Program-made: the position numbers and the translations under genes
Part shown: in pieces, positions 12,523 through 41,721 of the stretch
Layout of the letters: each line of letters begins with the position of its first letter
How positions within the stretch are numbered: position 1 is the first letter of the stretch
The notes under the pieces: model-generated
The model's input: the letters and a program-made list of their open reading frames with translations, nothing else
Told to the model about the DNA's origin: nothing
The model's database searches: none
Assembly (NCBI GenBank): GCA_044224495.1
Contig: JBGAKG010000005.1
Coordinates: 44,711-108,710, forward strand
Direction of reading: 5' to 3'
Length of the DNA: 64,000 nt
Source of the DNA: Polyangiaceae bacterium
Lineage (GTDB): Bacteria > Myxococcota_A > Polyangia > Polyangiales > Polyangiaceae

Positions 12523-14043
<1,521 letters not shown>

Positions 14044-19139: not shown

Positions 19140-20930
<1,791 letters not shown>

Positions 20931-24479: not shown

Positions 24480-24498
24480 CCCCATCAGGGCCCTCTAC

Positions 24499-25449: not shown

Positions 25450-26379
25450 ATGAAACGCGCAGTCGTCATCGTCGCCGCCTCCACCGTCGTCGCCAGCGTC
25501 TTCGGCGTCAGCGGAAGCTCGTCGCTCGAAGGCACCGCGCAGGCGCAGACCGCGGGCGACGAAGGCCCACCTCCTCCGGCCGAAGGGCCAAAATCGCAGC
25601 TCCTCGCGGCCGTGAAGACCAGCACGACGGCGCCCATCTCCGCGCCGAGCGCCTGCCCGGGCGGCATGGTCGAGGTCGAAGGCGACTTCTGCCCTTACGT
25701 GGAGCAGAAGTGCCTCCGCTGGCTCGACCCGGACACGAAGATGCGGTGCGCGGAGTTCGCGCCGACGGGCGAGTGCCCGACCCACACCGTCAAGAAGCAC
25801 TTCTGCATCGACGCGTTCGAGTTCCCGAACGAGCCCGGCGCCAAGCCGACCGTGATGGTGTCGTGGAACCAGGCGAAGGCTCAGTGCGGCGCGCAAGGCA
25901 AGCGGCTCTGCAACGAGAGCGAGTGGACCCTCGCGTGCGAAGGCCAGGAGCGCCTGCCGTACCCGTACGGCTACGCGCGCAGCGCGGACGCCTGCAACAT
26001 CGACAAGCCGCACCCGGCACCGAACGAGCACCTCATCGCAGACCCGAAGACGCGCGACGCCGAGGTCGCCCGGCTCGACCAGCGCGACCCCTCCGGTGCG
26101 CGCGAGGCGTGCGTGAGCCCGTTCGGCGTCCACGACATGACCGGCAACGTCGACGAGTGGGTCGTGAACGAGAGCGGGCGCCCCTACAAGAGCGGCCTGA
26201 AGGGTGGCTACTGGGGTCCCGTCCGCACGCGCTGCCGCCCGATGACGACGGCGCACGACGAGAACTTCACGTTCTACCAGGTCGGCTTCCGCTGCTGCTC
26301 CGACGCTGCAGCGGCCACGGCCGGTGGCGGCGCGGTGGCGAAGGCGTCGCCCGAGGCGAGCGGCCCGGCCGGGAGCTGA
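25450..26379 (+). CDS. Secreted formylglycine-generating-enzyme (FGE-sulfatase/SUMF1) domain protein
   Basis: Signal peptide MKRAVVIVAASTVVASVFG; signature GVHDMTGNVDEWV and RCCSD motifs of the FGE-sulfatase fold. Start at in-frame ATG index 21 of track ORF. Confidence 0.8.
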   Translation: MKRAVVIVAASTVVASVFGVSGSSSLEGTAQAQTAGDEGPPPPAEGPKSQLLAAVKTSTTAPISAPSACPGGMVEVEGDFCPYVEQKCLRWLDPDTKMRCAEFAPTGECPTHTVKKHFCIDAFEFPNEPGAKPTVMVSWNQAKAQCGAQGKRLCNESEWTLACEGQERLPYPYGYARSADACNIDKPHPAPNEHLIADPKTRDAEVARLDQRDPSGAREACVSPFGVHDMTGNVDEWVVNESGRPYKSGLKGGYWGPVRTRCRPMTTAHDENFTFYQVGFRCCSDAAAATAGGGAVAKASPEASGPAGS

Positions 26380-26862
26380 TCAGTCGGCGCCCGCGTCCGA
26401 GGGCGGCGCCGGCGGAGGTGCAGGACGGTGGAGCGGCGGATCGCCGTACTCGGTCCGCATCTTCCGCGTGAGCTGGTTGAGGATCACCTGCTCGTGGTAG
26501 CGCGGCATCTGCGGGAGCTGGACGATGACGTGGATCGGCCCGTCGAGCTCGCGCGGCTTCACGAGCTCGAGGGAGCCCTGGGAGACCTGCTTCCCGCTCT
26601 CGGTCGAGGTGTACTCGAAGAGTAGGTAGCCGCTCTGCTCGTCCTTCTCGATGACCTTCAGGTTCATGTCGATGCGGATCAGCCGCAGCGCGGCGTTCCA
26701 GGTCCGGTCGTAGCCATAGGGGGAGTCGTAGGACGACTGCGCCGCCACGTCCGGGCTCGTCAGGACGATGGCGCCGGTCACCGCGAGACCGAGCGCCGTC
26801 CCGGTGAGGGGAGCCGCCGCACGAAGCCAGAGCATCGACAGGAGCGAGTGGCGCATGCCCAT
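26380..26862 (-). CDS. Secreted hypothetical protein (160 aa)
   Basis: Signal peptide, balanced composition; convergent with FGE gene. Confidence 0.5.
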   Translation of the reverse strand: MGMRHSLLSMLWLRAAAPLTGTALGLAVTGAIVLTSPDVAAQSSYDSPYGYDRTWNAALRLIRIDMNLKVIEKDEQSGYLLFEYTSTESGKQVSQGSLELVKPRELDGPIHVIVQLPQMPRYHEQVILNQLTRKMRTEYGDPPLHRPAPPPAPPSDAGAD

Positions 26863-26938
26863 CGCTTATCGAAGCGCAAGAGCCTGGGCCAAATTTCCGA
26901 CGCTTGCTGGCGCGCCGCTCCTCCCGCACCATGAGCGC

Positions 26939-29227
26939 ATGGGACGGACCGGGATGGGCGCGCTGGGGGCTTTGAGCGCGCTGGGGCTCGCGCTCGGGGC
27001 GACGTTCTCGTGCTCGGACGAACCGACGGCGGTGACCCCGACCGACGCCGGGAGCGACGTGAAGGTTCCGGCCGACCTGTGCAGCCCCTCGCCGGCGAAG
27101 GACGCGTTTCCCACCGGCTCCTGTACCGCGCCGCAGCCGCCCCAGAAGGACGCGTTCGACGAGGCGCTCGCGATGATCGGTCGAGACCGGTGCAGTCTGC
27201 AACAAGATCCCAAGAAGATGCTGAACGCGGTGATGGACGTGGACGATCCGCGCCAGCTCCCCGACTTCAAGCCGCTCCTCGAGTACCCGCTCCGGCTGCC
27301 CAGCTACGGCACCGCCGTCGCCAAGGACTTCGATGGAGCGCTCGCCAGCGCGCGGCCCGTCTCTCGGGCGATCGCCGCCGCGTCGCTCCGGCGGGGGAAG
27401 CCGCTCGTGGGCTGCGCCGACGGCGCGTGGTGGGCGCTGCCGGCAGGTGATGCCCCGCTCGCGGTCGCGCTGAAGCAGCTCGCCGACGATCAAGGCGTGG
27501 ACTTCGACGAGGCCGCCGCCGCCGAGGCCCTGTCGGCCACGCCGATCGAGCTCCAACGCGCGCTCGTGCCGGTGGCGCGCGCGCTCGCGCGGGCGAACGT
27601 CGCCATCGCCGAGGCGCGGGTGCCGGCCGCCGCCTTTCTGCCGCGCTTCCGCACCGCGCCGGACTGGGTGATCGGCACCATCACCTACAAATGGACGGAT
27701 CCGCTGCTCGCCGCGTTCGACGGCGTCGACGTCGCGAAGATGAGCGAGGCCGCCACCGAGATCGCGGTCGCGATCGAGGCCGCCGAGCTCTCGCGATTCG
27801 CCGGGCTCGCCGTGCCCGACGTCGATCTGGCGACCCCGTTCGGCGGCATGGTGCTCCGCGGCGCCGACGCCCAGACGTACCTTCCTGGGACAGCGGCGGA
27901 GAGCGCAGCCTTCGTCCTCGACACCGGCGGCGCGGACACCTACCGCATCGCCGTGGCGGCGGCCACGCTCGATCGGCCGCTCGCGGTCCACGTCGATCTC
28001 GGCGGCGACGACACCTACGCCTACGTGGAGAAGAAGGTCGCCGAGGACGACCTCGGCGATCGCCTCCCGAGCGACGACGCGGGTCGCGTCGGGCGCACGC
28101 GGAGCCGCGTCGGGCGCCAGGGCAGCGCGGTCCTCGGCGTCGGGATGCTGTTCGACCTGGGGAAGAGCAAGGACGTCTATCGCTCGCTCGCGATCTCCCA
28201 GGGCGCGGCGGTGTTCGGCGTCGGGGTGCTGTACGACGACGGCGGCGACGACCGCTACGACGCCGAGGTGCTCTCGCAAGGCGCGGCCGCGTGGGGGATC
28301 GGCCTGCTCCTCGACGGGGGCGGGAGCGATCACCACCTCGCCTACGCCGACGCGCAGGGCTTCGGCATGGTGCAGGGCTTCGGCGCCGCGATCGACGCCT
28401 CGGGCGACGACGAGTGGTACACGAACCCCGGCTACCCCGGCGTGGCCGGCATCAAGGACGACATCCTCTACGCGAACGGGCAGCTCCCCGGGAAGGCGAA
28501 CACCTCGCTCTCCCAGGGCTGCGGCTTCGGGCATCGCCCCGACGCGCCGGAGCCCGGCTTCGAGTTCGCCGGCGGGTTCGGGCTGCTCCGCGACGCCGCT
28601 GGAAGCGATCGCTACACGACGGGCGTGTTCGGTCAGGCGTGCTCGTTCGGTCTCGGCATCGGGATGCTCCTCGATGGCGCCGGCGACGACGTCTACAAGG
28701 GGCTCTGGTACGTGCAGGGTGCAAACGCGCACACGGCGGTGGCGTACTTCGACGACGGCGCCGGCAACGACGCGTACAACCCCGACGCGTTCCCCGTCAC
28801 CGCGACGTCGATCGGCGTCGGGCACGACTTCTCTTCGGCCGTCCACTACGACGAAGGCGGCGACGACGTGTACTTCGGCCCCGGCCTCTCGCTCGGAAGC
28901 GGGAACGCCAACGGCATCGGCGTCATGGTGGTGCGCGGCGGGAAGGACACCTTCAACGCCGCGAGCGTGGTCTCGCTCGGCGCCGCCAACTCGACCGAGA
29001 TCTTCGGCACGCCCCGCAAGACGCTGCCGACGATCGGCGTCTTCGTGAAGGCGGGTGGCGCAGGTGCGTACGCCGTCGGCGGGGTCGATGCAGGCGCGTA
29101 CCCGTCGGGGAGCTGGTCCTACACGCCGAACAACACGCCGGACGGCGGCGCCGACGGCGGCCCGATCTACGACTACGAGAAGAGCATCGGCCTCGATCGG
29201 CCGAACGGCACGGCGGCGCTGCCGTGA
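26939..29227 (+). CDS. Large lipoprotein with about 10 tandem GxGDDxY repeats (possible beta-helix/beta-propeller)
   Basis: Lipobox ATFSC; repeated motifs GGADTYR, GGDDTYA, GGDDRYD, GGSDHHL, GDDEWY, GSDRYT, GDDVYK, GNDAYN, GDDVYF, GKDTFN spaced about 30 aa. Start taken at in-frame ATG (index 58) to avoid overlap with minus-strand gene. Confidence 0.6.
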   Translation: MGRTGMGALGALSALGLALGATFSCSDEPTAVTPTDAGSDVKVPADLCSPSPAKDAFPTGSCTAPQPPQKDAFDEALAMIGRDRCSLQQDPKKMLNAVMDVDDPRQLPDFKPLLEYPLRLPSYGTAVAKDFDGALASARPVSRAIAAASLRRGKPLVGCADGAWWALPAGDAPLAVALKQLADDQGVDFDEAAAAEALSATPIELQRALVPVARALARANVAIAEARVPAAAFLPRFRTAPDWVIGTITYKWTDPLLAAFDGVDVAKMSEAATEIAVAIEAAELSRFAGLAVPDVDLATPFGGMVLRGADAQTYLPGTAAESAAFVLDTGGADTYRIAVAAATLDRPLAVHVDLGGDDTYAYVEKKVAEDDLGDRLPSDDAGRVGRTRSRVGRQGSAVLGVGMLFDLGKSKDVYRSLAISQGAAVFGVGVLYDDGGDDRYDAEVLSQGAAAWGIGLLLDGGGSDHHLAYADAQGFGMVQGFGAAIDASGDDEWYTNPGYPGVAGIKDDILYANGQLPGKANTSLSQGCGFGHRPDAPEPGFEFAGGFGLLRDAAGSDRYTTGVFGQACSFGLGIGMLLDGAGDDVYKGLWYVQGANAHTAVAYFDDGAGNDAYNPDAFPVTATSIGVGHDFSSAVHYDEGGDDVYFGPGLSLGSGNANGIGVMVVRGGKDTFNAASVVSLGAANSTEIFGTPRKTLPTIGVFVKAGGAGAYAVGGVDAGAYPSGSWSYTPNNTPDGGADGGPIYDYEKSIGLDRPNGTAALP

Positions 29228-29228
29228 C

Positions 29229-30359
29229 TCAGGAGGCCGCTTCGGCGGTCTGCTTGTCGGGCTCTTTGTCGTTCTCGGCTGCGGCGATCGCCTTCAGGCT
29301 CCCGTGGCCCGCGAACAGCGCGACGCCGCCGGCGATGATCGTGAAGAGCACCTGGACCGAGAACAGCAGGAACGCATAGGCCGGCCCGCGCTCCTGCACG
29401 ATCGCGCTCGGGTAGTAGAACGTCATCCCGCAGAAGAGCCCTGCCTGGAAGATGCCGAGGAGCCCCGGCGGACCCGGGATCAGGATCGTGATGCCGAGCA
29501 TGCCCATCATCGCGGCGGCCTCGCCGAACGTCGGCGCGCTGCCGTCGGCGTGCTCCAAGCCGGCGCCCCACGCGAGGAACCACATCCCCGCCGCGTTGAC
29601 GCCCCAGTAGAGGGTGGTCTCGAGGAGGTAGCCCGCGGCGTCGCGCGGAGAGCGGAGGACGTCGAGCCCTTCGGCCAAGCGCTCCGCCTCGTGGGCGAGC
29701 TTCTCCGCCAGCTTCTTGGAGACGATGCCGACGATGGCGACGGTCGCCCGGTGCGCCCATTTGCGCGCGAAGAAGTAGACCGCGATCGTCGTGAGCGCGC
29801 CGGTGAAGCCGAGGAGCGTGAAGAACGCATAGCCGCGGACTTGCGCCGTCGTGACGGGGAGGCCGACGACGTGATCGGGCAACGGAACCACCGTCGGGAC
29901 GAACAGCAGCGCGATCGCGAGGACCACGCTCAGGTAGAGCCCGTCCACGATCCGGTCGGCGATGATGCTGCCGGTGGCGGCGGAGAAGGAGACGCGGCCT
30001 TTCTCGCGGAGCATCGCCGGGCGCACGAACTCCCCGAGCCGGAACGGCAGGAGCAGGATCGCGGCGAAGCCGACGAGCGAGATCGAGATGAGGCGCGTGG
30101 TGGGGACGTGGTCCGCGACGCGGCGGAGGAGGAACCGCCAGCGCGTGCCGCGGAAGAAGCTCATCCCGGCCATGAAGAAGACGTACGTCGGGACCGTCCA
30201 CCACTTCACGTGGGAGAACTGGCTCCGCGACGGGACGAGGTCGAGGCCGGAGTGCCGGAGCGCCCACAAGAGGCACACGGTCACGACGATCGACGCGATG
30301 AATCGCGTGGCGTGACGGCGAAAGAAGCCCGGCCTCGTGGCTGGGGAAAGCTCGGCCAT
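29229..30359 (-). CDS. UPF0104 / flippase-like (lysyl-phosphatidylglycerol-synthase TM-domain family) membrane protein
   Basis: 8 or more TM helices, RWRFLLR and FRLGEFVRP motifs typical of the family. Start at ATG index 59 (MAELSPATRPGFF). Confidence 0.7.
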   Translation of the reverse strand: MAELSPATRPGFFRRHATRFIASIVVTVCLLWALRHSGLDLVPSRSQFSHVKWWTVPTYVFFMAGMSFFRGTRWRFLLRRVADHVPTTRLISISLVGFAAILLLPFRLGEFVRPAMLREKGRVSFSAATGSIIADRIVDGLYLSVVLAIALLFVPTVVPLPDHVVGLPVTTAQVRGYAFFTLLGFTGALTTIAVYFFARKWAHRATVAIVGIVSKKLAEKLAHEAERLAEGLDVLRSPRDAAGYLLETTLYWGVNAAGMWFLAWGAGLEHADGSAPTFGEAAAMMGMLGITILIPGPPGLLGIFQAGLFCGMTFYYPSAIVQERGPAYAFLLFSVQVLFTIIAGGVALFAGHGSLKAIAAAENDKEPDKQTAEAAS

Positions 30360-30388
30360 GGGAAGAGCGTGCTCTATAGCACGGGTCG

Positions 30389-31114
30389 TCAGCCGCCGGC
30401 TTCGCCGGCCAGGATTCGGCGCGGACCCAGGTCGAGGAGGCGCACCGTCTCCTCCCGGCCCACGAGCTTCTCCAGCCTGGCGATGGAGCGCACCACGTCG
30501 TCCACGTCGGCGGGGCGGTGGGCGTCGGAGCACGCGGCTTCGTAGGCGTCCTCTTCCAGGAGCTTCTCGGCCACGCGCTGCGGCTGCGAGCCGTACTTCC
30601 CGACGAGCGCGCAGACGTCCAAGAGGAGCGCGGCGCCCACGTCGAGCAACGCATCCACCGCGTCCCGATCGCTCCAGACGGGCTGGTACCGCTCCGGGTG
30701 GGCGACGATCGGAACCAGGCCGTGCCGGCGGAGGTCGGCCAAGCGCTCGGGCAGACGAACGGGAAAGGCGCTCGGGTTCATCTCGACGAGCACCGCTCGC
30801 CCACCGGGGTAGGGGAGCCCGGCGCCGGAGAGCAGGCGGGCGAACGTGACGTCGTCGAACCAGTGCTCGCTCGCGAGCGCGCGCGCGGGGAGCTTGGCGG
30901 CGTGCGGAGCAATCGCGGCCTCGAACCCGGCGAACGCGGTCTCGAGGCGGGCGCGATCGTTGTCGAACATGCCCGGCCGCATGTGCGGCGTCGCGACGAC
31001 GGTCTCGAAACCAGCCTCGCCCAGGCGCTGGAGGAGCCGCAGACCGTCCTCCACCGAGCGAACCCCATCGTCGACCTGAGGGACGTAGTGCGAGTGCAAG
31101 TCCACGTAGCCCAC
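30389..31114 (-). CDS. PHP-domain tyrosine-protein phosphatase (CpsB/YwqE family)
   Basis: VDLHSHYVPQVDDGVRSVEDGLRLL...TVVATPHMRPGMFDN...IVAHPERY motif set of CpsB-type Mn-dependent PHP phosphatases. No ATG; start is a GTG at either index 163 or 169 of the track ORF, so start is within 31114..31132. Confidence 0.7.
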   Translation of the reverse strand: MGYVDLHSHYVPQVDDGVRSVEDGLRLLQRLGEAGFETVVATPHMRPGMFDNDRARLETAFAGFEAAIAPHAAKLPARALASEHWFDDVTFARLLSGAGLPYPGGRAVLVEMNPSAFPVRLPERLADLRRHGLVPIVAHPERYQPVWSDRDAVDALLDVGAALLLDVCALVGKYGSQPQRVAEKLLEEDAYEAACSDAHRPADVDDVVRSIARLEKLVGREETVRLLDLGPRRILAGEAGG

Positions 31115-31201
31115 GCTGCGGCTATACCACACCGACTCCGGGCGGTCCTCGTCCCACGTCCTCGCCGAGGTGAAGTCGAGTATAGTCGCGCTCCACCAGG
31201 C

Positions 31202-32434
31202 ATGGCCGCGCTCAACCCCCTGACGAGGGAGCTCGTCTTCAAGATCGTCTTCTATGGGCCCGGCCTCGGCGGCAAGACGACCACGCTCCAGACGATCCAC
31301 GCGCGGACCAAGCCCGAGTTCCGCGGGAAGATGGTCTCGCTCGCGACGCCCACCGATCGCACGCTCTACTTCGACTTCCTCCCGCTCCGGTTGCCGAAGG
31401 TCCGCAACCTGAGCGTGCGACTCCAGCTCTTCACCGTGCCGGGCCAGGTCTACTTCACGGCAACCCGCAAGCTCGTGCTGACGGGCTCGGATGGGATCGT
31501 GTTCGTGGCCGACTCGCAGAACGCGCGGATGGACGCGAACCAGGAGTCGCTCGACGACCTCAACGGCAACCTCGCCGAGCACGGGCGGAGCCTCTCGCAG
31601 ACGCCCCACGCGTTCCAATGGAACAAGCGCGACCTCGCTGACGTCGCCACGGTCGAGGAGCTCGATCGTCGCTTCAACCTGTTCGCGGCGCCGGCGACGG
31701 GGACGGTCGCCACGAGCGGGGAGGGCGTGTTCGACGCGCTCGACAAAATCACGCAGCTCGTCCTCGAGAACTACAAGGCGCAGATGCCCCGCGGCGGCGG
31801 CGGCGTCCCGATGCTCGACGCGGAGGACTCCGGGCTCGAGGTCGCCGTCCGCGGTCTGGCCGAGTCACCGCTCCCGCGGCCGCTTCCCGCGCCCGTCGCG
31901 CGCACGCCCGAGCCGCCGAGCGCGCGCGCGCCCGAGTCGCGCCCGCTCCCGGCCGCGCCTCCCGTCCACGCGCCCCAAGCTCAGGACCGTCCGCCGTCCG
32001 CACCGGCGATGGCAGCCGTGTCGCCCGTGCCGCCGTCGCAGCCGCGACCCGAGGTCACGGCCGAGCCGATCGCCGTCCGCGGGGTGAGCTTCGCCAACCT
32101 GTGGCCCGAGGGCGAGCGGGCCGACGTTCGCGCCGCCGAGACCGAGCTCGTGCGTGGGAGCTGGGGCCCTGCGATCCTGCGCTGCGACGTGGTGGTGGCG
32201 CGCACGCTCGCTGCTGCGGCGAGCCTCGCCGGGGGCGCGGCCGAGGCGCCTCGCGATCCGGCGGTGGTGGCGATGCTCCTCGGGATCGACGGGCCGGCCT
32301 ACCTCCGCTTCCGCCAGCTCGTTCGGGCGGCCCGGAGCCTCCGGCCGGTCGCCGAGGAAGAGGCCCTGGGGGCCTACCATTTCGCCCTCGACGTGCGGCG
32401 GGCCCGGATGCAGCTGGAAGCCGCTACGAGTTAG
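31202..32434 (+). CDS. MglA-like Ras-superfamily small GTPase with about 230-aa C-terminal extension (Pro-rich linker plus unknown domain)
   Basis: Residues 1-190 align motif-for-motif with gliding-motility MglA: KIVFYGPGLGGKTTTLQ (G1), TDRTLYFDFLP (G2/Arg-finger region), FTVPGQVYF (MglA-type G3 with Gln), NKRD (G4), SGEGVFD (G5). Followed by PRPLPAPVARTPEPPSARAPESRPLPAAPP linker and a 120-aa C-terminal domain. Confidence 0.8.
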   Translation: MAALNPLTRELVFKIVFYGPGLGGKTTTLQTIHARTKPEFRGKMVSLATPTDRTLYFDFLPLRLPKVRNLSVRLQLFTVPGQVYFTATRKLVLTGSDGIVFVADSQNARMDANQESLDDLNGNLAEHGRSLSQTPHAFQWNKRDLADVATVEELDRRFNLFAAPATGTVATSGEGVFDALDKITQLVLENYKAQMPRGGGGVPMLDAEDSGLEVAVRGLAESPLPRPLPAPVARTPEPPSARAPESRPLPAAPPVHAPQAQDRPPSAPAMAAVSPVPPSQPRPEVTAEPIAVRGVSFANLWPEGERADVRAAETELVRGSWGPAILRCDVVVARTLAAAASLAGGAAEAPRDPAVVAMLLGIDGPAYLRFRQLVRAARSLRPVAEEEALGAYHFALDVRRARMQLEAATS

Positions 32435-32526
32435 CCAGGCCGCCCGCCAGGCTGGAGCGGAAAACCTCGCGAACGCCGTTACGGAAACAGGTGAACGGAT
32501 GGGCGGGTCGGTGTAGAATTCTAGCG

Positions 32527-34221
32527 ATGGTCGAGACGCTCGCGCCAGACGATCTGATCGAGGAAGCGCTGTCCGCGGACGCGCTCCGTCGGGGGACGCG
32601 TCTCGCGCGCTACGAGCTCCTCGTTCCGATCGCGAAGGGCGGCATGGCTCGAGTGTGGGCCGCGCGCCTCCACGGCCAGCGCGGCTTCTCGAAGACGGTC
32701 GCGATCAAGACGATTTTGCCACACCTCGCGGAGGAGCCCGAGTTCGAGCGCATGTTCCTCGACGAGGCGCGCATCGCGGCGCTCGTCCATCACCCGAACG
32801 TCTGCGAGATCTACGAGCTCGGTGAAGAGGGCAAGGTCCTCTACATCGTGATGGAGTGGGTCAACGGGGAGTCGCTCATGCAGCTCCTCCGTTCGTCGGG
32901 GAAGATGGCTCCGATGGACGCGCGCCTCGCGGCGAAGATCGTGTCCGACGCGTGTGCGGGGCTCCACGCTGCGCATCAGCTCACCGACGACGATGGCCGT
33001 TCGCTCGGCGTCGTCCACCGCGACGTCTCCCCCCACAACATCCTCGTCGGCTCCGACGGGCAGGTGAAGGTCGCCGACTTCGGCGTCGCGAAGGCGCTCG
33101 GCCAGATGCACAGCGCCACGCAGGCGGGGCAGGCGAAGGGCAAGATGGCGTACATGGCGCCCGAGCAGATCGCCGGCAACGCCGACCGCCGGAGCGACGT
33201 GTTCTCGATGGGCATCGTCCTCTACGAGGCGACGACCGGTCAGCGCCCGTTCACCGGTTCGAACGATGCGGAGATCATGCACGCAGTTCTCGGCGGACAG
33301 ATCACGCCTCCGACGCGGATCATCCGGAGCTACCCGCCCGAGCTCGAGCAGATCGTACTGAAGGCGATGGCGTCGGATCCCGCGCAGCGGTACGCCACGG
33401 CGGAGCGGATGCGTGTCGCGATCGAGGAGTTCCTCGCGCGGAGCGGCTCGCTCGTCACGGCGGCCATGATCGGCGGGTTCGTGCAGCAGCGGATCGGCCC
33501 CGAGCTCGAGAAGCGGCGCGAGAAGATCCGCGTCGCGGCGAACGCGACCGCCCGCACCGACGACGCGAGCTCCCCGAACCACGCGGGCGTCGTCGCCACC
33601 GGAACGCCGTCCGTCCAGAGCCTGGTCGAGGGCGTCCAATCGGGCCAACGCCCGGTTCCACCGGCGCCCGCCGGTCCCACTTCGGTACCGGAGCCTGCGC
33701 CGCCGAGCACGGGGAAGTACGTCCTCGCCGCGGTCATCGGCATCCTCGTCGCGGTCGGCCTCGGCACGGGCGTGATCCTCTACCTCCGGAAGCAACAGGA
33801 CGACGGCTTCACCGCGCGCGGCAACGCGACGGCAGCCGCGCCCGCGAGCATCGCTGCAAGCGCAGCGATGCCGAGCGCGGCGGCGCATGCGCCTCTCCAC
33901 ACGGGCCCGGTCGCCTTCAATGGTCTCCCGCCCGACGCGGTGCTGGTGGTCGACGGGATGCTCCTCGATCGCAGCGCGCGCACCGTCGAGCGCCCGCCGG
34001 TCGGTACGAAGCGCTCGGTCGTCATTCGGGACCCTGGCTTCCTCGACGAGTCCATCACGATCGACGACACGACTCCGCCCTCGCTCGACGTCACCCTCAC
34101 GATCGGCTCGCCGTCGGCACTCCCGACGACGCCGACCGCGACCGCAACGGGTGCCACTCCCACCGCCACTGGATCGGGCAAGAAACCACCGCCCGTCGCG
34201 CTTCCGCAAAATCCCTACTGA
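32527..34221 (+). CDS. Hanks-type Ser/Thr protein kinase, single TM, extracytoplasmic PEGA-like C-terminal domain
   Basis: VAIK, HRDVSPHNIL, DFG (ADFGVAK), APE (MAPEQ) subdomains; TM helix YVLAAVIGILVAVGLGTGVILYL; C-terminal VVDG...VVIRDPGF resembles PEGA. Confidence 0.85.
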   Translation: MVETLAPDDLIEEALSADALRRGTRLARYELLVPIAKGGMARVWAARLHGQRGFSKTVAIKTILPHLAEEPEFERMFLDEARIAALVHHPNVCEIYELGEEGKVLYIVMEWVNGESLMQLLRSSGKMAPMDARLAAKIVSDACAGLHAAHQLTDDDGRSLGVVHRDVSPHNILVGSDGQVKVADFGVAKALGQMHSATQAGQAKGKMAYMAPEQIAGNADRRSDVFSMGIVLYEATTGQRPFTGSNDAEIMHAVLGGQITPPTRIIRSYPPELEQIVLKAMASDPAQRYATAERMRVAIEEFLARSGSLVTAAMIGGFVQQRIGPELEKRREKIRVAANATARTDDASSPNHAGVVATGTPSVQSLVEGVQSGQRPVPPAPAGPTSVPEPAPPSTGKYVLAAVIGILVAVGLGTGVILYLRKQQDDGFTARGNATAAAPASIAASAAMPSAAAHAPLHTGPVAFNGLPPDAVLVVDGMLLDRSARTVERPPVGTKRSVVIRDPGFLDESITIDDTTPPSLDVTLTIGSPSALPTTPTATATGATPTATGSGKKPPPVALPQNPY

Positions 34222-34222
34222 G

Positions 34223-35227
34223 ATGAAATCACGCCGCGCTCTCTTCGCAGCGCTCACCGCCCTCGGCTTGGGCGTGAGCGTCCCCGCTTTCACCACCTAC
34301 GCCACGCCTGCCGCGGCCCAAGAAGACGTCGCGGATCCCGCGGCCGAAGCGAAGAAGCAGTTCGCGAACGGGATGAAGGCGTTCCAAGCGAGCCGGTTCG
34401 TCGAGGCCGCGCTCGCGTTCGAAGCGGCGCACTACTACAAGCCCAACGCGGTGGCGCTCTACACCGCGGCGCTCGCGTGGAAAGAGGCGAACCAGCCCGA
34501 GCGCGCAGCGGACGCGTTCAGTCGCTCGATCGACGCGCAGGGTCTGAACCCCCAGCAGGTCACGATGGCCAAGGAGAGCCTGGCCGCGCTCGAGAAGACG
34601 ATGGGCACGCTCGTCGTGACGGGCCCGCCCGACGGCAAGGTCCAGGTCGACAACTTCACCGAGTCCACGCTCCCCGCGCGTCTCCACGCGACGCCGGGCG
34701 TCCACACGCTCAACGTGCGGCTGCCGGGGGCGAAGATCGAGAAGCGCGACGCCACCTTCGAGACCGGGCAGGTCAAGGAGATGGATGTCACGCCATCGAG
34801 GGTCGAGCCGAAGGTCGAACCGAAGGTCGAGCCCAAGACGGAGCCCAAGGTCGTGACCCAGTCGGTCCCCACGATCTCGGTGAAGCGCGCGATCGGCTTC
34901 AGCGCGATCGGCGTCGGCGGTGCAGCCGCGATCTCCGCGCTCATCGTCGGCCTGCAGGCGGTCTCCGCGGGGGACGCCTACGACGCAGCGCCGTCGCGCG
35001 CCGGCTACGATCACGCGAACGCGCTCGCGCTCTGGAGCACGGTCCTCTGGATCAGCGCCGGGGTGTTCGTCGCCGGTGGCGTCACGCTCGTCCTCATCCC
35101 GGAAAAGTCGAGCCCCGCGGCGGACGCGGACAAGGGGACCGACAAACCGGCGGAGGACAAACCGAAGGACGCCGTCCTCAGCCTCACGCCCACGCTCGGC
35201 GGGCTCGTGCTCCGGGGGGCATTCTGA
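34223..35227 (+). CDS. Secreted TPR-like + PEGA-domain protein with C-terminal TM anchor
   Basis: Start 2 nt after kinase stop. Signal peptide; PEGA-like GTLVVTGPPDGKVQVDN...HTLNVRLPG; EPKVEPKVEPKTEPKV repeat; C-terminal TM segments. Confidence 0.6.
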   Translation: MKSRRALFAALTALGLGVSVPAFTTYATPAAAQEDVADPAAEAKKQFANGMKAFQASRFVEAALAFEAAHYYKPNAVALYTAALAWKEANQPERAADAFSRSIDAQGLNPQQVTMAKESLAALEKTMGTLVVTGPPDGKVQVDNFTESTLPARLHATPGVHTLNVRLPGAKIEKRDATFETGQVKEMDVTPSRVEPKVEPKVEPKTEPKVVTQSVPTISVKRAIGFSAIGVGGAAAISALIVGLQAVSAGDAYDAAPSRAGYDHANALALWSTVLWISAGVFVAGGVTLVLIPEKSSPAADADKGTDKPAEDKPKDAVLSLTPTLGGLVLRGAF

Positions 35228-36684
35228 TGCGCGCGCGTCATCTGGTCGGGGGCGTGGCTCTCCTCGGCGGTGCAGCCGCCATCTTCGCTGCCTGTTCGCT
35301 CGGGCTCGACGAGTCCAAGATCGGCGGAGGGGACGCGAGCGTCGACGCGATCGGCGATGGCGGTGGCGACGTCGACGCGGCGAACCCGGTCGGTTGCCAA
35401 GGCGACAACGAATGCAAGCCGGCGAACACCTGCCTCACGGGCAAGTGCGATCTCACGCGCAAGATCTGCCTCTACGATCTCTGCCCGGCGGCGGCGTGCA
35501 AGGCCTCGGTCTGCGACACGAACGCGAAGACGTGCTCCGTCCCGACGTCCTACGGGTTCCGTGCGGGCAGCTTCAAGGTGACGGCGGGCAACCTCGGTTG
35601 CGGTGGCGGTGGCGCCGGCGCACGGCGCTGCTTCGCGGCGTCGTACCCCTTCGTCATCGTCGGCACGACGAACGGCGTCGTCGGCTACTCCGTCGCAGAC
35701 CCGACCGACGCGAACCCGGCTGCGCTCCCCGTCGCGGGCCTGCCGTTCTTCCCGGCGAACATCGTCGCGAGCGGCTCGCGCGTCTACTTCGTCGGCTCCG
35801 TGCAAGGCGCCGGCCCGAACTACAAGCTGCCGATCGCGTGGATGGACGTCCCCGGCGATCCCACCGTCAAGCAGCTCAGCGCGACGACGGTGTTCGACAC
35901 GGTGCAGGTCACGAGCGTCGACCGCATCTTCCCCGACGGCGTCGGTGGCATCTACCTCCAGAACGACAACGCCGCGAAGTCGTTCCCGGTCGCGCGCATC
36001 ACGGCGCCGCTGAAGGATCTCGAGCCGCTCGCGTTCTTCGCGTCGGCGGGCATGCCTCCGAACACGTCGCCGGGCGCTGCCAGCGGCGGGCGTCTGGTCA
36101 CGTTCCGGCAGGACGGCTCGCCGACCTGGAGCGCCGTGCTCGGGTTCGAGACGAGCCCCGCGACGAGCAGCGCGCAGTACGGCGGCGACCAATCGCTCGC
36201 CGCGTCGTTCGGCACGAACTACACGCCGGGTTACATCGCGCACGGCGCGGCCGGTGCGCTCGTCTACAACGCGAGCGCGATCGACGTGCCGGACGGCGGG
36301 CCGAGCCGCGTCACGGCAGTGCGCGTCGGCTGGATCGTCGACGACGACAAGGGGACGAAGCTCGAGGCGACCGCCAAGGTGGACGTCGAGAAGTACTCCC
36401 AGCAGATCGGGGTCGGCAGCGATCTCGCCGGCCCGGTCGCTTGGCTGGACGCGAAGCGCGCGCTGGTCCTCGCCGCGTCCGCGAGCAACACGTCGCAGAC
36501 GGCCGTGCAGGTGGCCACCCGCGACGGTACGCCGGCGATCATCCCGAACCGCCGCTTCGTGCTCCCGTTCGTGCCGAGCCAGCTCGCAGCGACCGCGTCG
36601 AACGGCTTCGGCTACGTGCTCGCGCCGGACGTGAACCCCGAGCCACCGACGGTCCACATCTTCGGCGCCGGCTGCGACAATTGA
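35227..36684 (+). CDS. Lipoprotein with N-terminal Cys-rich region (hypothetical)
   Basis: Start overlaps previous stop (TGATG). Lipobox IFAAC; Cys-rich CQGDNECKPANTCLTGKCD module, then about 380-aa Gly/Ala/Val-rich domain. Confidence 0.55.
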   Translation: MRARHLVGGVALLGGAAAIFAACSLGLDESKIGGGDASVDAIGDGGGDVDAANPVGCQGDNECKPANTCLTGKCDLTRKICLYDLCPAAACKASVCDTNAKTCSVPTSYGFRAGSFKVTAGNLGCGGGGAGARRCFAASYPFVIVGTTNGVVGYSVADPTDANPAALPVAGLPFFPANIVASGSRVYFVGSVQGAGPNYKLPIAWMDVPGDPTVKQLSATTVFDTVQVTSVDRIFPDGVGGIYLQNDNAAKSFPVARITAPLKDLEPLAFFASAGMPPNTSPGAASGGRLVTFRQDGSPTWSAVLGFETSPATSSAQYGGDQSLAASFGTNYTPGYIAHGAAGALVYNASAIDVPDGGPSRVTAVRVGWIVDDDKGTKLEATAKVDVEKYSQQIGVGSDLAGPVAWLDAKRALVLAASASNTSQTAVQVATRDGTPAIIPNRRFVLPFVPSQLAATASNGFGYVLAPDVNPEPPTVHIFGAGCDN

Positions 36685-36736
36685 CCCAGGCAGCGTCCAT
36701 CCGGTGAACGGGGTGGGGGTCGGTCGGGTCGGGCTG

Positions 36737-39307
36737 TCACGCCCACCGAACGAGCGTGGTCTCGTAGGGATTGCTCATCGCGGCGTTCCAGGGCATCACG
36801 CGCACCGTGAAGGCGTGAGCCCCACTCGCGCTGGTCGGGATCTCGCCGCGGTAGCGGTACTTCCCGCCGTCCTCCGCACCGTCGACCTTCATCCGGACGA
36901 CGTCGCCGTGGGCGAGCTCCAGCGCTCCGCCCGTCTCGCCGTGGTAGAGCTCCACCACGACGTCCTCGGGGGAGAGCGGCCCGAGCTTCACGAGCGCGGT
37001 CACCTTCACCGCGTCACCCACCGTGACCTCCTCGGCCGTCTCCCGGGTCACGCTCTCGATCGTGACGTCGGCCCACGCGCGCTGCGCGCGCTCCTTCCAC
37101 GCCACGAGCTCGCGCGCGCCGCGTAGATCGGCGTCGGTCATGCGGTGCCACAGCTTGTGCGACGTGACGTAGAACCGCTCCGTGTACTCGCGCACCATGC
37201 GCGACGTGTTGAACGCCGGCGCGAGCTTCGCGATCGCGTTCTTCATCTTCCGTACCCAGCCGCGCGGCAGGTCGTCGCGCTCGGCGCGATCGAAGAAGAG
37301 CGGCACGACCTCGCGCTCGAGCACGTGGTGCAGGAGCTCCGCCTCGATCGCGTCGCCGGTTCCGTCTTCGTACTCTTCGCCGCGCCCGATCGCCCAGCCG
37401 ACGTCGCTCCCGTGATCGCGCCACGCCTCGGCCCACCAGCCGTCGAGCACGCTCAAGTTCAGGACGCCGTTGGCGGCGGCCTTCATCCCGCTCGTCCCGC
37501 TCGCCTCGAGCGGCCGCCGCGGCGTGTTGAGCCACACGTCGACGCCGCTCACGAGCGCGCGCGCGATGCGCATGTCGTAGTCCTCGATGAAGACGACGCG
37601 CCCGGCGAGGCCTTCCTTCCGGCTCTCGTGCACGATCTTCCGGATCAGCTCCTTGCCGCCCTTGTCCTGCGGGTGCGCTTTCCCCGCGAAGACGAGCTGC
37701 ACGGGCCGCTTCGTGTCGCCCACCAAGCGCAGGACGCGGTCGACGTCCGAGAAGAGGAGGGTCGCCCGCTTGTACGTCGCGAAACGGCGCGCGAACCCGA
37801 TCGTGAGCGCATGCGGATCGAGCACCTGCTCGGCGGCCTCGATCACCTCGCGCGCCTCGCCCCGCCGCTCGGCGGCGTTCTTCAGCCAGCGCCGCGCTCC
37901 GACGACGAGCCGGTGGCGGCGGTGCTCGTGGATCTGCCAGAGCTCCGCGTCCGGGATCTCGTAGGTCCGCGCCCAAGGCGCCGCGTCGTCCGGCGTCTCG
38001 GCCCAGCGCGGCCCGAGGTAGCGCGTGAGGAGCGCCGCCATCTCGTCGGAGATCCACGACGCGACGTGAACGCCGTTCGTGACGGACTGGATCGGCACCT
38101 CGTGCTCGGGGAGATCCGGCCAGAGCATCGACCACATCTTGCGCGAGACCGCGCCGTGCAGCGCGCTCACGCCGTTGTAGTGATCCGAAGCGCGGATCGC
38201 GAGGACGGGCATCTGGAAGCTAGGCGGCTTCGTCGTGTCGTCCGCGCGGCCGAGCGCGAGGAGCTGCTCCTCGGTGATGCCGAGCCCCTTCCGGTACGGC
38301 TCGAGGTACTTCTTCACGAGCTCCGGGTTGAACGCGTCGTTCCCGGCCGGGACCGGCGTGTGGGTCGTGAAGACGTTCTGCGCCGTGCAGGCCTCGCGAG
38401 CGACGGCGAAGCTCGCGCCGCGCTCGCGGATCAGGCGCCCAATCCGCTCGATCGCGAGGAACGCCGAGTGGCCCTCGTTCATGTGGCAGACGGTCGGCGA
38501 CATCCCGAGCGCCTCGAGCGCGTGCACGCCGCCGATGCCGAGCATGATCTCCTGGCGGACGCGGAACTCCTGGTCGCCACCGTAGAGCGGTCCGGTGATC
38601 GCGCGGTCCTCGGCCGCGTTCACGGTGAGGTTGGCGTCGAGCAGGTAGAGCGGCACCCGACCGACCTGCACCTTCCATAGCTGGGCGTAGATGGTCCGGT
38701 CGGGGTAGGCGACGTTGATCACGAGCCGCTTTCCGTTCGCGTCGACGACCGGGAGCACGGGGAGGCGGTGCCAATCGTTGATCGGGTAGCGCTCCTGCTG
38801 GAGCCCGTCGCTGTTGAGCGCCTGGCGGAAGTAGCCCTCCGCGTACGCGAGCCCGATCCCGACGAGCGGGAGCCCGAGGTCGCTCGCGGTCTTCAGGTGA
38901 TCGCCGGCGAGCACGCCGAGGCCGCCCGAGTACACCGGCAGCGACTCGTGCAGCCCGTACTCCATCGAGAAGTACGCGATGCGCGAGCCCGCGCACTCGG
39001 GGAACTTCTTCGCGAACCAACCCTCGCGCCCGAGGTACTTCTGGAGGGCCTGGTGCGCCACGTCGACCTGCGCGAGGAACGCGTCGTCCGTCGAGAGCTC
39101 GTCGAGCCGCTTCTGCTCGATCCGGGTGAGGAGCTCGATCGGGTTGCCGTGCACCTCTTCCCAGAGCGCCGGATCGATGCGCCAGAAGATGGTCCGCGCG
39201 TCGGGCGCCCAGGCCCACCAGAGGTTCTGGGCGATGTCGCGCAGTCGCTCCAGCGAGGCGGGGAGGCGAGGAACGACGTGGTACGTGGTCAGGGTCCGCG
39301 GCGGCAT
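36737..39307 (-). CDS. glgP: Alpha-glucan (glycogen/maltodextrin) phosphorylase, GlgP/TIGR02094 family
   Basis: Full-length match in architecture: GGLGVLAGDHLK, EGHSAFL, TNGV motifs and PLP-site K in GTSGMKAAANG. Start at in-frame ATG index 27. Confidence 0.85.
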   Translation of the reverse strand: MPPRTLTTYHVVPRLPASLERLRDIAQNLWWAWAPDARTIFWRIDPALWEEVHGNPIELLTRIEQKRLDELSTDDAFLAQVDVAHQALQKYLGREGWFAKKFPECAGSRIAYFSMEYGLHESLPVYSGGLGVLAGDHLKTASDLGLPLVGIGLAYAEGYFRQALNSDGLQQERYPINDWHRLPVLPVVDANGKRLVINVAYPDRTIYAQLWKVQVGRVPLYLLDANLTVNAAEDRAITGPLYGGDQEFRVRQEIMLGIGGVHALEALGMSPTVCHMNEGHSAFLAIERIGRLIRERGASFAVAREACTAQNVFTTHTPVPAGNDAFNPELVKKYLEPYRKGLGITEEQLLALGRADDTTKPPSFQMPVLAIRASDHYNGVSALHGAVSRKMWSMLWPDLPEHEVPIQSVTNGVHVASWISDEMAALLTRYLGPRWAETPDDAAPWARTYEIPDAELWQIHEHRRHRLVVGARRWLKNAAERRGEAREVIEAAEQVLDPHALTIGFARRFATYKRATLLFSDVDRVLRLVGDTKRPVQLVFAGKAHPQDKGGKELIRKIVHESRKEGLAGRVVFIEDYDMRIARALVSGVDVWLNTPRRPLEASGTSGMKAAANGVLNLSVLDGWWAEAWRDHGSDVGWAIGRGEEYEDGTGDAIEAELLHHVLEREVVPLFFDRAERDDLPRGWVRKMKNAIAKLAPAFNTSRMVREYTERFYVTSHKLWHRMTDADLRGARELVAWKERAQRAWADVTIESVTRETAEEVTVGDAVKVTALVKLGPLSPEDVVVELYHGETGGALELAHGDVVRMKVDGAEDGGKYRYRGEIPTSASGAHAFTVRVMPWNAAMSNPYETTLVRWA

Positions 39308-39388
39308 GGCGGCGCAGCATACACCACGACCCCCGGTCCCCGAGGACGAAACGTAACTCAGGAATGAGTTACGTAATTCCTCCAACGT

Positions 39389-40099
39389 TCACGGGCAGAT
39401 GCCGTACTCGACGCCCTGCACGAGCACGCTCGGGTTGAGCGCCGTGCAGCTCCCGCTCGTGCACGACGTCCCGACCTTGCACCACTTGTGACACGTGTTG
39501 TCGGTGAGGCAGATCGTGCCCTGCGAACACGCGAACGGGTTGGAGCTCGAGCACGTCGAGCTGGTCCCGGCGCCGACGCAGTCCGTCTCGCCGTTCGTCG
39601 TCGCGATGCAGTTGCCCGTCCCGCACGCCGCGGCCGGCGAGAGGAGCGAGCACTTCATGCGGCAGATCTTGAGGTTCGGAACGTCGCCGCCGTTGCCGTC
39701 CTGGAGGTTCACGCAGACGTCCGTCTTGGGATCCGTGCACGTGCCGCTCGCGCTGCAGAAGGCATGACAGGCGCCGAGCTCGCAGCTCAGGCCGACCGCA
39801 CAGTCGGCGGTGGTGCTGCACGCCGAGCCCATCGGCTTCGAGCCGGCGCTGACGCACGAGGCCGTCCCCGCCGTGTCGGTGATGTCGCACGTCTGATTCG
39901 CCCCGCAGCCGCACTGCGGGCTCACGCCGCAGGCGTTGCTCGGAGGCGCGGTCTTGCAGTTCGGATCGGCGTCCTTCGGCGGCGAACCCGAGTCCTGCGG
40001 CGTCGACCCCCCGTCCCCCGCGTCGGGCTTCACGAAGCCGCTGCTGCCGACGGCACAGGCGGCGAGGACGAACGGAAGGGCGAGGAGAGCGGAGCGCAT
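39389..40099 (-). CDS. Cys-rich lipoprotein (myxobacterial Cys-repeat type)
   Basis: Lipobox VLAAC; more than 30 Cys in repeated CxxxxC/GTC modules. Confidence 0.55.
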   Translation of the reverse strand: MRSALLALPFVLAACAVGSSGFVKPDAGDGGSTPQDSGSPPKDADPNCKTAPPSNACGVSPQCGCGANQTCDITDTAGTASCVSAGSKPMGSACSTTADCAVGLSCELGACHAFCSASGTCTDPKTDVCVNLQDGNGGDVPNLKICRMKCSLLSPAAACGTGNCIATTNGETDCVGAGTSSTCSSSNPFACSQGTICLTDNTCHKWCKVGTSCTSGSCTALNPSVLVQGVEYGICP

Positions 40100-40121
40100 G
40101 GCGCGGTCTCTTAGCTCCATC

Positions 40122-41165
40122 TCAGCCGTGGTCCAGCTCGACGACGTTCTCGAGCGTGCCGAGCAGGTCGATGTCGAGCGCCACGACGTCGCCGGGCTCG
40201 AGCCACTGGTTGTCGGTGATCTTCGACCCGTTCAGCTCGAGGAAGCATCCCGTCCCGACCGTGCCCGAGCCGATGACGTCGCCCGGGTACAGCGTGACGC
40301 CGTAGCTCGCGCGCTCGAGGATTTGCGCGAACGTCCAGTTCATCTGCGCGACGTTCCCCTCGGAGACCTGCTTGCCGTTCACGCGCGCGCGCATCGCGAG
40401 GTCGAAGACGGCGCCGTTCGCCGTCTTCTTCGTGCGCGGGGCGAGCTCGTCGAGCGTGACCAACCACGGGCCGAGCCCGGTCGCGAAGTCCTTGCCCTTC
40501 GCGGGCCCGAGCGAGAGCTTCATCTCCTCCATCTGGAGCGTGCGCGCCGAGAAGTCGTTCATGATCGTGAGGCCGAAGATCGCCTCGTCCGCGTTCGCTG
40601 CGGTGAGGTTCCGCGCTTCCTTCCCCACGACGATCGCCGCCTCGAGCTCGAAGTCGAGCTTGTCGAGGTGGAGCTTCATCACCCGCAGCGGGCCGGGCCC
40701 GATCACCGCCTGGTGGTTCGTGAAGTAGAAGACCGGGAACTGATCGAACTCGGGGATCATCTCGAGGCCGCGGTTGCGGCGCGCCGTCTCGACATGCTGA
40801 CGGAACGCGTAGCCGTCGCGCATCGACGGCGGGCGCGGGATCGGCGCTTCGAGCTTCACGCTCGCGAGCGGAAGAAGAAGCGGCGCACCCTCGAAGGTCG
40901 CCGGGAGCTTCCCCGCCGCGTGCTCCGCCACGATCGCGTCGGCAGCGGCGCGCGCGGCGGCGGCGTGCTGAACGAAGCCGAGCACCCCCGCGCCGTAGCG
41001 ATCGACGACGTGCGCGGTGTCGCACGGGCGACCTGCCGCGTGCTCGTGCCACGCGAACGCGCGGGCCAGGTCCAGCACGCTCGCGCCGCTGGTGGTGGGA
41101 TCGCCGAGGACGATGCCTCCGCGAGGGTGGCCGTGCGCATCGGTGCGGTAGGTGACGAGCTTCAT
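40122..41165 (-). CDS. Fumarylacetoacetate hydrolase (FAH) family protein
   Basis: IFGLTIMNDFSAR, GKDFATGLGPWLVT, DVIGSGTVGTG motifs of FAH fold. Start at ATG index 187 of track ORF. Confidence 0.8.
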   Translation of the reverse strand: MKLVTYRTDAHGHPRGGIVLGDPTTSGASVLDLARAFAWHEHAAGRPCDTAHVVDRYGAGVLGFVQHAAAARAAADAIVAEHAAGKLPATFEGAPLLLPLASVKLEAPIPRPPSMRDGYAFRQHVETARRNRGLEMIPEFDQFPVFYFTNHQAVIGPGPLRVMKLHLDKLDFELEAAIVVGKEARNLTAANADEAIFGLTIMNDFSARTLQMEEMKLSLGPAKGKDFATGLGPWLVTLDELAPRTKKTANGAVFDLAMRARVNGKQVSEGNVAQMNWTFAQILERASYGVTLYPGDVIGSGTVGTGCFLELNGSKITDNQWLEPGDVVALDIDLLGTLENVVELDHG

Positions 41166-41213
41166 GGCGGCTCCCTTTTCGCAAGCGACGCGTGCTAAAC
41201 GCAAGGCCGAAAC

Positions 41214-41687: not shown

Positions 41688-41721
41688 GATCCTTTCGCCG
41701 GCTCGGGCGTACACGCCCGAC

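Follow-up and report, generated by a model that had tools for sequence, protein, structure and literature searches.

A conserved family of extended MglA paralogues, mainly from Polyangia, with a predicted HEPN-like tail and a loosely linked kinase neighbourhood

Polarity in myxobacterial motility is governed by the master switch MglA; the paralogues of MglA have barely been studied, and an old link between MglA and the kinase MasK has never been resolved. In Myxococcus xanthus, the masABK genes, which encode an integral membrane protein, a lipoprotein and the kinase MasK, are located 327 base pairs (bp) from mglBA and are divergent from it (PMC3546991). MasK is a membrane-associated kinase that was found as a suppressor of mglA8 and that binds MglA in a yeast two-hybrid assay (PMC3546991). 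The 'MglA2' group defined in 2010 comprises only proteins of 225-327 amino acids (aa) (PMC3000849), a survey of prokaryotic small GTPases from 2014 focused its analysis on proteins between 150 and 240 aa in length (PMC4316618), and SofG, with 239 aa, is described as lacking a cognate GTPase-activating protein (GAP) (PMC4316618). Here we analyse a locus encoding an MglA-type GTPase of 410 aa and its neighbours, at positions 29229-36684 of a 64,000-nucleotide (nt) stretch of Polyangiaceae bacterium GCA_044224495.1 (contig JBGAKG010000005.1, 44,711-108,710 of the forward strand). We refer to this whole stretch as the window, and coordinates are given within it unless a locus is named. An initial annotation had read the locus as a GTPase switch hard-wired to a transmembrane kinase and surface proteins. 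We find that the observations in that annotation are for the most part correct, but that the tightness and novelty of the module had been overstated; what is new is the GTPase, an MglA paralogue conserved chiefly in Polyangia, with a private and predicted HEPN-like tail.

The GTPase gene and the parts of its product are the following:

31202..32434, plus strand: GTPase, 410 aa, with an MglA match
31202..31777, plus strand: MglA-type G domain (residues 1-192), from MglA alignments, G motifs and an AlphaFold2 (AF2) model
31826..31861, plus strand: short conserved helix behind the G domain (residues 209-220), consensus GIxxAxRGLAES
31862..32089, plus strand: Pro-rich, disordered linker of variable length (residues 221-296), 31% Pro, predicted local distance difference test score (pLDDT) 40-50
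32090..32434, plus strand: five-helix C-terminal domain with a predicted HEPN-like fold (residues 297-410 and the stop codon)

Residues 2-192 match M. xanthus MglA (5ymx) with an E-value (E) of 3.5e-59, and the G domain matches T. thermophilus MglA at E 2e-50 and is 51-53% identical to Corallococcus MglA over 190 aa. The P-loop (GPGLGGKT, residues 19-26), R53, the TVPGQ motif (78-82) and NKRD (141-144) are invariant across 120 homologues. R53 (the intrinsic arginine finger), T78 (in place of Asp) and Q82 (the catalytic Gln) align with the respective M. xanthus MglA residues, and the pLDDT of the G domain is mostly 86-96. The MglA-type motif set that had been recognised initially is thus confirmed, by its invariance and by the MglA match. 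The GTPase is a genuine MglA paralogue, and its G domain, judged by its residues, appears catalytically complete and of the MglA type.

A homologue search of 5.8 billion proteins yielded more than 120 hits of 366-467 aa, most with 96-100% query coverage, at 51-89% identity, from Polyangiaceae, Pendulispora and Labilithrix. These lengths, like the 410 aa of the window protein, lie outside the ~190-200 aa of a single-domain MglA. The alignment has four parts, namely the G domain, the GIxxAxRGLAES motif, an unalignable Pro-rich stretch and a conserved C-terminal block of ~110 aa. In a crude neighbour-joining tree, the extended proteins form a derived group inside the canonical MglA sequences, and the clade of the window (clade C) is monophyletic. 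Genomic contexts were compared in 86 loci (80 fetched and six obtained via exact-protein look-ups, numbered with the prefix L), using tblastn and clustering of open reading frames (ORFs). Sorangium cellulosum So ce26 holds the extended gene (L040), and a canonical 196-aa MglA with MglB has been reported from that strain (PMC3000849); in Sandaracinaceae-type loci, canonical mglBA lies ~3 kb from the extended gene. Because canonical mglBA coexists with it in both settings, the extended GTPase is an additional paralogue. These proteins constitute an uncharacterised MglA-paralogue family, mainly of Polyangia, and a GTPase family of ~400 aa is not described in either the 2010 or the 2014 survey (PMC3000849, PMC4316618).

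The lack of an MglB or roadblock partner nearby, as initially noted, was borne out by tblastn with three MglB queries (E <= 1e-3), which found no such gene in the whole 64-kb window. Near the extended GTPase, MglB occurs only in the Sandaracinaceae-type loci, where it adjoins the canonical mglA. One metagenome-assembled genome (MAG), L059, carries two convergent MglA-like genes of ~345 aa, 0.5 kb apart (10001..11032 of that locus, plus strand, and 11585..12625, minus strand); neither is matched by the hidden Markov model (HMM) of the HEPN-like tail.

The C-terminal extension measures 218 aa and not 230 as first given, but its composition of a Pro-rich linker and a further domain is as described. 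The short helix behind the G domain, predicted by AF2 with low confidence, has an invariant R217 and a nearly invariant A215, and L219 and E221 are highly conserved. The linker (~75 aa) is unalignable and variable in length among homologues. When AF2 was run on the full-length alignment, the five C-terminal helices were confident, and the C-terminal domain modelled alone reached a pLDDT of 92.8 and a predicted TM-score (pTM) of 0.86. A Foldseek search with this domain returned seven HEPN entries at the top, with TM-scores of 0.55-0.68 and weak E-values of 0.4-2.3, and the predicted structure has the four/five-helix up-and-down bundle of the HEPN superfamily. Residues 286-410 have no Pfam hit even at E <= 10, nothing was found for the tail in NCBIfam, and a profile search of PDB sequences gave nothing relevant. 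We conclude from the models that the tail is presumably a HEPN-like helical bundle, and a non-catalytic one. An identity as a catalytic HEPN RNase was rejected, as the domain has no Rx4-6H motif and no conserved His; the corresponding helix (helix 4) reads R366-Y-L-x-F-R371-x3-R375-x2-R378, with R366 present in 107 and R371 in all of 120 homologues. A roadblock/longin or receiver-like fold, which the initial annotation had put forward for checking, was also rejected, since the tail is predicted to be all-helical.

The tail domain is essentially exclusive to the MglA fusion. A profile of the tail block matched only 199 proteins or clusters among 1.84 billion representatives, always at the C terminus; all but two of the hits of at least 330 aa have an N-terminal MglA-type domain, and the many short hits look like fragments. 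The domain HMM matches 43 of the fetched loci, including those of S. cellulosum So ce56, So ce26 and So ce1099, Polyangium fumosum and Chondromyces apiculatus, and also Labilithrix, Sandaracinaceae-type MAGs, the distant loci L043/L045 and a Haliangiales MAG. It had been considered that the extension might prove absent or variable among relatives; it is conserved in more than 120 full-length homologues. Within the literature library that was searched, HEPN and MglA are not mentioned together in any paper.

ORF listing and translation gave six genes within 29229..36684, all at the places first assigned to them. Beyond the GTPase gene, the features of the locus are:

29229..30359, minus strand: UPF0104/LPG_synthase_TM ('flippase-like') polytopic membrane protein, 376 aa (PF03706, E 9.6e-30; TIGR00374, E 1.7e-9)
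30389..31132, minus strand: CpsB/CapC-type PHP phosphotyrosine phosphatase, ~241-247 aa (PF19567, E 8.5e-35)
31133..31201, between divergent genes: CpsB-GTPase intergenic region, 69 bp, with a -10-like TATAGT at 31181-31186
32435..32526, plus strand: GTPase-kinase intergenic region, with a -10-like GTG-TAGAAT at 32511-32519
32527..34221, plus strand: MasK-like, receptor-type Hanks kinase, 564 aa (Pkinase, E 1.1e-41)
34223..35227, plus strand: 334-aa envelope protein, no Pfam hit above threshold
35227..36684, plus strand: Cys-rich lipoprotein, 485 aa, no Pfam or NCBIfam hit

The gap between the GTPase and kinase genes is 92 nt. A single nucleotide, rather than the two first counted, separates the kinase stop codon from the ATG of the 334-aa gene, and the latter overlaps the lipoprotein gene by 1 nt (TGATG), as stated initially. 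The 1-nt gap and the TGATG junction argue that the kinase, 334-aa and lipoprotein genes, hereafter the trio, are translationally coupled.

The kinase consists of a kinase domain (~33-293), a linker, one transmembrane (TM) segment at 394-422 by hydropathy, an extracytoplasmic domain of ~140 aa and a C-terminal LPxNPY. The assignment as a TM Ser/Thr kinase is therefore upheld by the Pkinase match and the TM segment, but the PEGA domain attributed to it is not: Pfam detects no PEGA (PF08308) in its ectodomain at E <= 10, and none was found in 5 orthologue ectodomains. Its kinase domain is 45% identical to that of Corallococcus MasK (239-245 bits, E 2e-75). The window encodes a second, unrelated Hanks kinase (380 aa), whose gene has a 4-nt overlap with that of a VWA-domain protein (41722..44462, plus strand, for the pair); this kinase is 29-30% identical to the kinase of the locus and 30% identical to MasK. 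Throughout the 86 loci, every kinase linked to a TPR protein of the 334-aa type is 41-46% identical to MasK (221-245 bits), whereas all other kinases are 26-38% identical. By these comparisons the window kinase is best described as MasK-like. Kinase orthologues (L002, L005, L010, L018, L043, L045) share an extracytoplasmic C-terminal LPxNP[YF], with QPFNPEAM in L043/L045; in the window this motif is at 34198..34221.

The 334-aa protein has a signal peptide, a weak TPR, a beta-rich segment, two TM helices and a C-terminal G-x-F. It had been annotated as a TPR/PEGA membrane protein, of which the membrane part holds, the TPR is only sub-threshold (E 0.024; 2e-5 in one orthologue) and the PEGA part fails, with no PF08308 hit at E <= 10. 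In one orthologue there is a sub-threshold PEGA match (E 0.0028, 18.0 bits against a cut-off of 20.8). A PEGA-type beta-sandwich in either the kinase ectodomain or the 334-aa protein is possible. Most 334-aa orthologues end in G-x-F after an alternating hydrophobic stretch, resembling an outer-membrane beta-signal (35201..35227 in the window). The 334-aa gene always follows the kinase gene in 9 complete loci, including L043/L045; the L086 contig ends inside the following gene. The 485-aa protein, with a signal peptide, the lipobox FAAC and 13 Cys, is a Cys-rich lipoprotein as annotated, and its gene follows the TPR gene in L002, L005, L010, L018, L084 and L085. Homology of these two proteins to MasA and MasB was considered and rejected: the TPR protein has no BLASTP similarity to MasA and an hhalign profile probability of 1.9%, and the lipoprotein has no BLAST similarity to MasB. 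Corallococcus MasA (L081 7655..9406, minus strand) has precomputed CarboxypepD_reg hits and a faint PEGA hit. In hhalign, MasA and the 334-aa family match only along a beta-sandwich-like stretch of 36 columns (G-x-h-x-l-x-v-x-aPG); a type of domain may be common to both proteins even though they are not homologous overall.

The G+C content of the window is ~70%, and TAnnnT hexamers are very rare in it (14 on the plus and 13 on the minus strand of 24000..45000); TG(n)TAnnnT occurs only twice on the plus strand of the 64 kb. The intergenic TATAGT stands 16 nt ahead of the GTPase ATG, and in most loci of the family there are TG-n-TAnnnT-like elements 8-20 nt before the GTPase start. The GTG-TAGAAT element stands 7 nt before the kinase ATG, which has no Shine-Dalgarno sequence, and in 11 of 11 loci the kinase orthologues have an equivalent element (GTG/TGn-TAnnnT) 7-16 nt before the start, whatever lies upstream. 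No -10-like element precedes the TPR or lipoprotein genes, and no terminator-like hairpin is present on the plus strand of the GTPase-kinase gap. A sigma-70 consensus scan gave no promoter between the GTPase and the kinase, since its thresholds miss extended -10-only elements. Because rare -10-like elements precede both the GTPase and the kinase starts, we infer two units: the GTPase gene would have its own promoter, and the kinase, TPR and lipoprotein genes would be transcribed as a second unit from a separate promoter, into an mRNA with no leader or almost none. The CpsB and UPF0104 genes would make up a third, divergent unit. The 'hard-wired' operon is not supported, given the kinase elements in 11 of 11 loci and direct adjacency in only four loci. 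Indeed, the initial annotation had named an internal promoter as an observation that would undo its own interpretation, and such a promoter is what these elements indicate, as far as can be inferred from sequence.

The intergenic hexamer (31179..31186) reads TATAGT on the plus and TATACT on the minus strand, and is thus -10-like both ways; a single site could act for the two divergent genes. Several TAnnnT elements lie 8-16 nt before start codons (GTPase, kinase and GlgP at 39321), which suggests that short-leader or leaderless transcripts might be common in the source organism.

The CpsB match to PF19567 scores 120.7 bits against a cut-off of 27 and covers profile positions 1-233 of 234. The protein has an N-terminal VDLHSHYVPQVDDG motif and a DxHxH metal motif, present as VDLHSH; its start is uncertain, at 31114 or 31132. 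The UPF0104 protein has multiple hydrophobic segments. The PF19567 and PF03706 matches confirm the annotation of a CpsB-type PHP phosphatase and a UPF0104 membrane protein, and the divergence from the GTPase is also correct, but the spacing is 69 bp and not ~90 bp. CpsB and the GTPase diverge in L001-5, L010, L015, L018, L020, L044 and L083-86, and wherever a clade-C locus includes upstream sequence, both CpsB and UPF0104 are beside the GTPase. The divergence is also seen in the cultured Pendulispora brunnea, in which the trio is missing.

No partner gene is conserved across the whole GTPase family in the fetched loci, and the context differs by clade. The trio is directly downstream of the GTPase in the window, L044, L085 and L086. 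One opposite-strand gene, encoding a major facilitator superfamily (MFS) protein, intervenes in L084, and two or three opposite-strand genes do so in L002, L005, L018 and L010; the intervening genes encode MFS, glyoxalase, aldehyde dehydrogenase, acyltransferase and lipoprotein. In Labilithrix (L004) the trio is rearranged. The trio thus recurs near the GTPase within its own clade. In the distant L043/L045 the order is gap-pgk, kinase, TPR protein, MFS and GTPase, all co-directional. The 64-kb window contains no homologues of the MFS, aldehyde dehydrogenase, glyoxalase, UDP-sugar dehydrogenase or rhomboid proteins of the related loci.

Elsewhere in the family, ~20 Sorangium/Polyangium/Chondromyces-type loci have the order DnaK, DnaJ/TPR, extracytoplasmic function (ECF) sigma factor, zinc-ribbon rhomboid, (PA14 lipoprotein) and GTPase. 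Behind the GTPase comes one of two sets, either an opposite-strand mreB-mreC-mreD-pbp2-rodA cluster or a gene for an NtrC-type regulator together with 3-5 prepilin-like genes. In M. xanthus, the known partners of MglA or SofG include MreB and type IV pili. The loci with the rhomboid context are:

L013, L017, L024 and L039-L041: Sorangium/Polyangium/Chondromyces
L007, L012, L019, L021, L022 and L033: further rhomboid-context loci

The Sandaracinaceae-type order is mglA-mglB, divergent from sppA, a 200-aa gene and the GTPase (L029 6327..11173; L053 5263..8762; L056). The 200-aa gene is conserved in the Sandaracinaceae-type MAGs, and its stop codon abuts the TTG start of the GTPase.

In the wider surroundings, the upstream genes include dnaG (Toprim) paired with rpoD (full-length sigma-70) (18037..20930, plus strand), which indicates that the region belongs to the core chromosome and is not an island. 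An 819-aa protein without a Pfam or NCBIfam match (26768..29227, plus strand) has nine evenly spaced [GA]G[x][DN]x[YFH] motifs (GGADTY, GGDDTY, GGDDRY etc.) in residues 387-729; an 805-aa ORF occupies the same position in L086, position being all that was compared. An anti-phage defence system was considered and rejected, as PADLOC returned only generic kinase-domain matches (PD-T4-6, mad6) and none for the GTPase or other genes.

At a probability of roughly 55%, we favour the reading that three transcription units are arranged around an MglA paralogue, and that the locus is the Polyangia counterpart of mglBA-masABK with a loosely partnered kinase. The G domain would be a GTP/GDP switch like MglA, and the helical tail would dimerise or dock and in this way keep the switch in place at a partner or site. 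Hydrolysis of GTP would be slow and intrinsic, or stimulated in trans by a canonical MglB encoded elsewhere. The neighbouring kinase complex would be a loosely linked, non-obligatory partner sensing the state of the envelope, and the GTPase or its linker might be a binding partner or substrate of the kinase, on the model of MasK and MglA in M. xanthus. A MasK-type kinase is found beside an MglA-family gene in three lineages and in three arrangements, which argues for a functional but loose relationship between the two. The GTPase is thus likely to act as a docked MglA-type switch, loosely partnered with a MasK-type kinase complex. Several observations weigh against this scheme. The tightest conserved neighbour of the GTPase is CpsB-UPF0104 and not the kinase. 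The trio is absent within the available flank in P. brunnea (L083), L020 and L006/L008/L014, and is also absent beside the ~20 Sorangium/Polyangium/Chondromyces-type members, where the GTPase follows a rhomboid protease gene; the linkage could have been passed down as synteny in a single family-level clade. The MasK-like subfamily is large in Polyangia, and its many paralogues, 60-70% identical in the kinase domain, mean that orthology to MasK is not established; neither the TPR protein nor the lipoprotein is homologous to MasA or MasB. Furthermore, read-through from the GTPase into the kinase is possible without a terminator, and the HEPN-like label refers to a predicted simple helical bundle with weak Foldseek E-values and no support at the sequence level.

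Some of these observations would also fit a GTPase and trio that are functionally unrelated neighbours, joined by clade-inherited synteny in genomes crowded with Hanks kinases. Such kinases are dense (the window has two, and the fetched loci have several unrelated ones), Pendulispora and L020 have lost the linkage, Labilithrix shows it rearranged, and no neighbour is conserved family-wide. We regard this account as possible but doubtful, since the same kinase-TPR pair recurs near the GTPase in the distant L043/L045 in another order, the canonical mglBA of Myxococcaceae, too, has a MasK-type kinase beside it, and MasK is reported to bind MglA (PMC3546991). If instead the real partner were the divergent CpsB/(UDP-sugar dehydrogenase)/UPF0104 unit, a step of envelope glycoconjugate or lipid modification would be under the control of the GTPase or share its regulation. 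The divergent arrangement in every clade-C locus with upstream sequence, including Pendulispora without the trio, agrees with this, as does the shared 69-bp control region with its palindromic -10-like hexamer. However, that context is absent from Sorangium-type, Sandaracinaceae-type and L043/L045 members, the flanks tested (~18-25 kb, and 40-46 kb of the window) contain no BY-kinase, Wzx/Wzy or glycosyltransferase cluster, and divergence alone is weak evidence, so we think a CpsB partnership unlikely. Still less probable is the initial proposal of one obligatory four-gene operon, a self-contained, MglB-free switch-kinase-surface module coupling polarity signalling to envelope or polysaccharide events. 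The shared strand, the 92-nt gap without a terminator-like hairpin, the direct adjacency that recurs in L044, L085 and L086, and the lack of MglB in the 64 kb would all suit such an operon, but the kinase has its -10-like element in 11 loci, including those with an opposite-strand upstream gene, one to three opposite-strand genes intervene in five related loci, and Pendulispora, L020 and every Sorangium-type locus are without the trio. On the role of the tail, we also entertain, as a long shot, a built-in regulator of the switch: a nucleotide- or ligand-binding domain acting in cis, or a surrogate for a GAP or guanine nucleotide exchange factor (GEF), through the invariant Arg cluster (R334, R351, R371, R375, R378), with a linker phosphorylated by the adjoining MasK-type kinase. 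The GTPase would then be a polarity switch complete in itself, working independently of MglB and gated by a kinase that senses the envelope, and the tail would be the first HEPN-fold domain regulating a small GTPase.

The family is present in culturable, sequenced strains (So ce56, So ce26, Chondromyces apiculatus, Polyangium fumosum and Pendulispora), and the GTPase-kinase relationship thereby becomes testable outside M. xanthus. The extended protein is also a natural fusion with which to study where MglA-type switches go in the cell, or how they are controlled, when no MglB is encoded next to them.

Among described systems, the HEPN domains (AF0298, 2hsb; TT1696, 1ufb; ST0689, 1wol; sacsin HEPN, 3o10) differ from the tail, which is without Rx4-6H, and the window locus is not in a toxin-antitoxin, CRISPR or defence context. 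The GTPase shares with Group 1 MglA the P-loop, the R53 arginine finger, the TxxGQ G3 motif with T78 and Q82, and NKRD, but it has 410 rather than ~195 aa, with an extra helix, a Pro-rich linker and a HEPN-like domain, and no adjacent mglB. With SofG and the 'MglA2' group II it has in common an MglA-like G domain, an extra region and no MglB partner (PMC3000849, PMC4316618), whereas the listed group II proteins have 225-327 aa, SofG has 239 aa, and none has 366-467 aa. SofG is an MglA-like domain with an N-terminal extension; the window GTPase has no such extension, as it starts MAALNPLT, aligned to MglA residue 2, and carries instead a C-terminal extension of 218 aa including a 110-aa domain. 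By architecture and described length it is therefore not SofG, in agreement with the initial annotation, which had set it apart from SofG-type paralogues.

The locus had also been called a module not described before, which does not hold in view of masABK-mglBA with its MasK-MglA binding (PMC3546991) and of conservons (PMC4316618). In actinobacterial conservons (CvnA histidine kinase, CvnB roadblock, CvnC, CvnD GTPase), an MglA-family GTPase is coupled to a membrane kinase (PMC4316618) as in the window, but they have a histidine kinase, an MglB-like protein and a strictly conserved four-gene operon, unlike the Hanks kinase, the lack of a roadblock protein and the loose linkage seen here. The closest comparison is with mglBA-masABK, whose layout was also recovered in a Corallococcus contig (L081). 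There, masA-masB-masK is divergent from mglB, whereas in the window the kinase, TPR and lipoprotein genes are downstream and co-directional. The accessory proteins are only of the same types (membrane protein, lipoprotein), the kinase ectodomains differ, and the window GTPase is an extended paralogue with no MglB in the window. In both systems, nevertheless, an MglA-family gene stands beside a coupled unit of three genes, for a membrane Hanks kinase, a membrane protein and a lipoprotein, and the kinase domains are 45% identical against a background of 26-38%.

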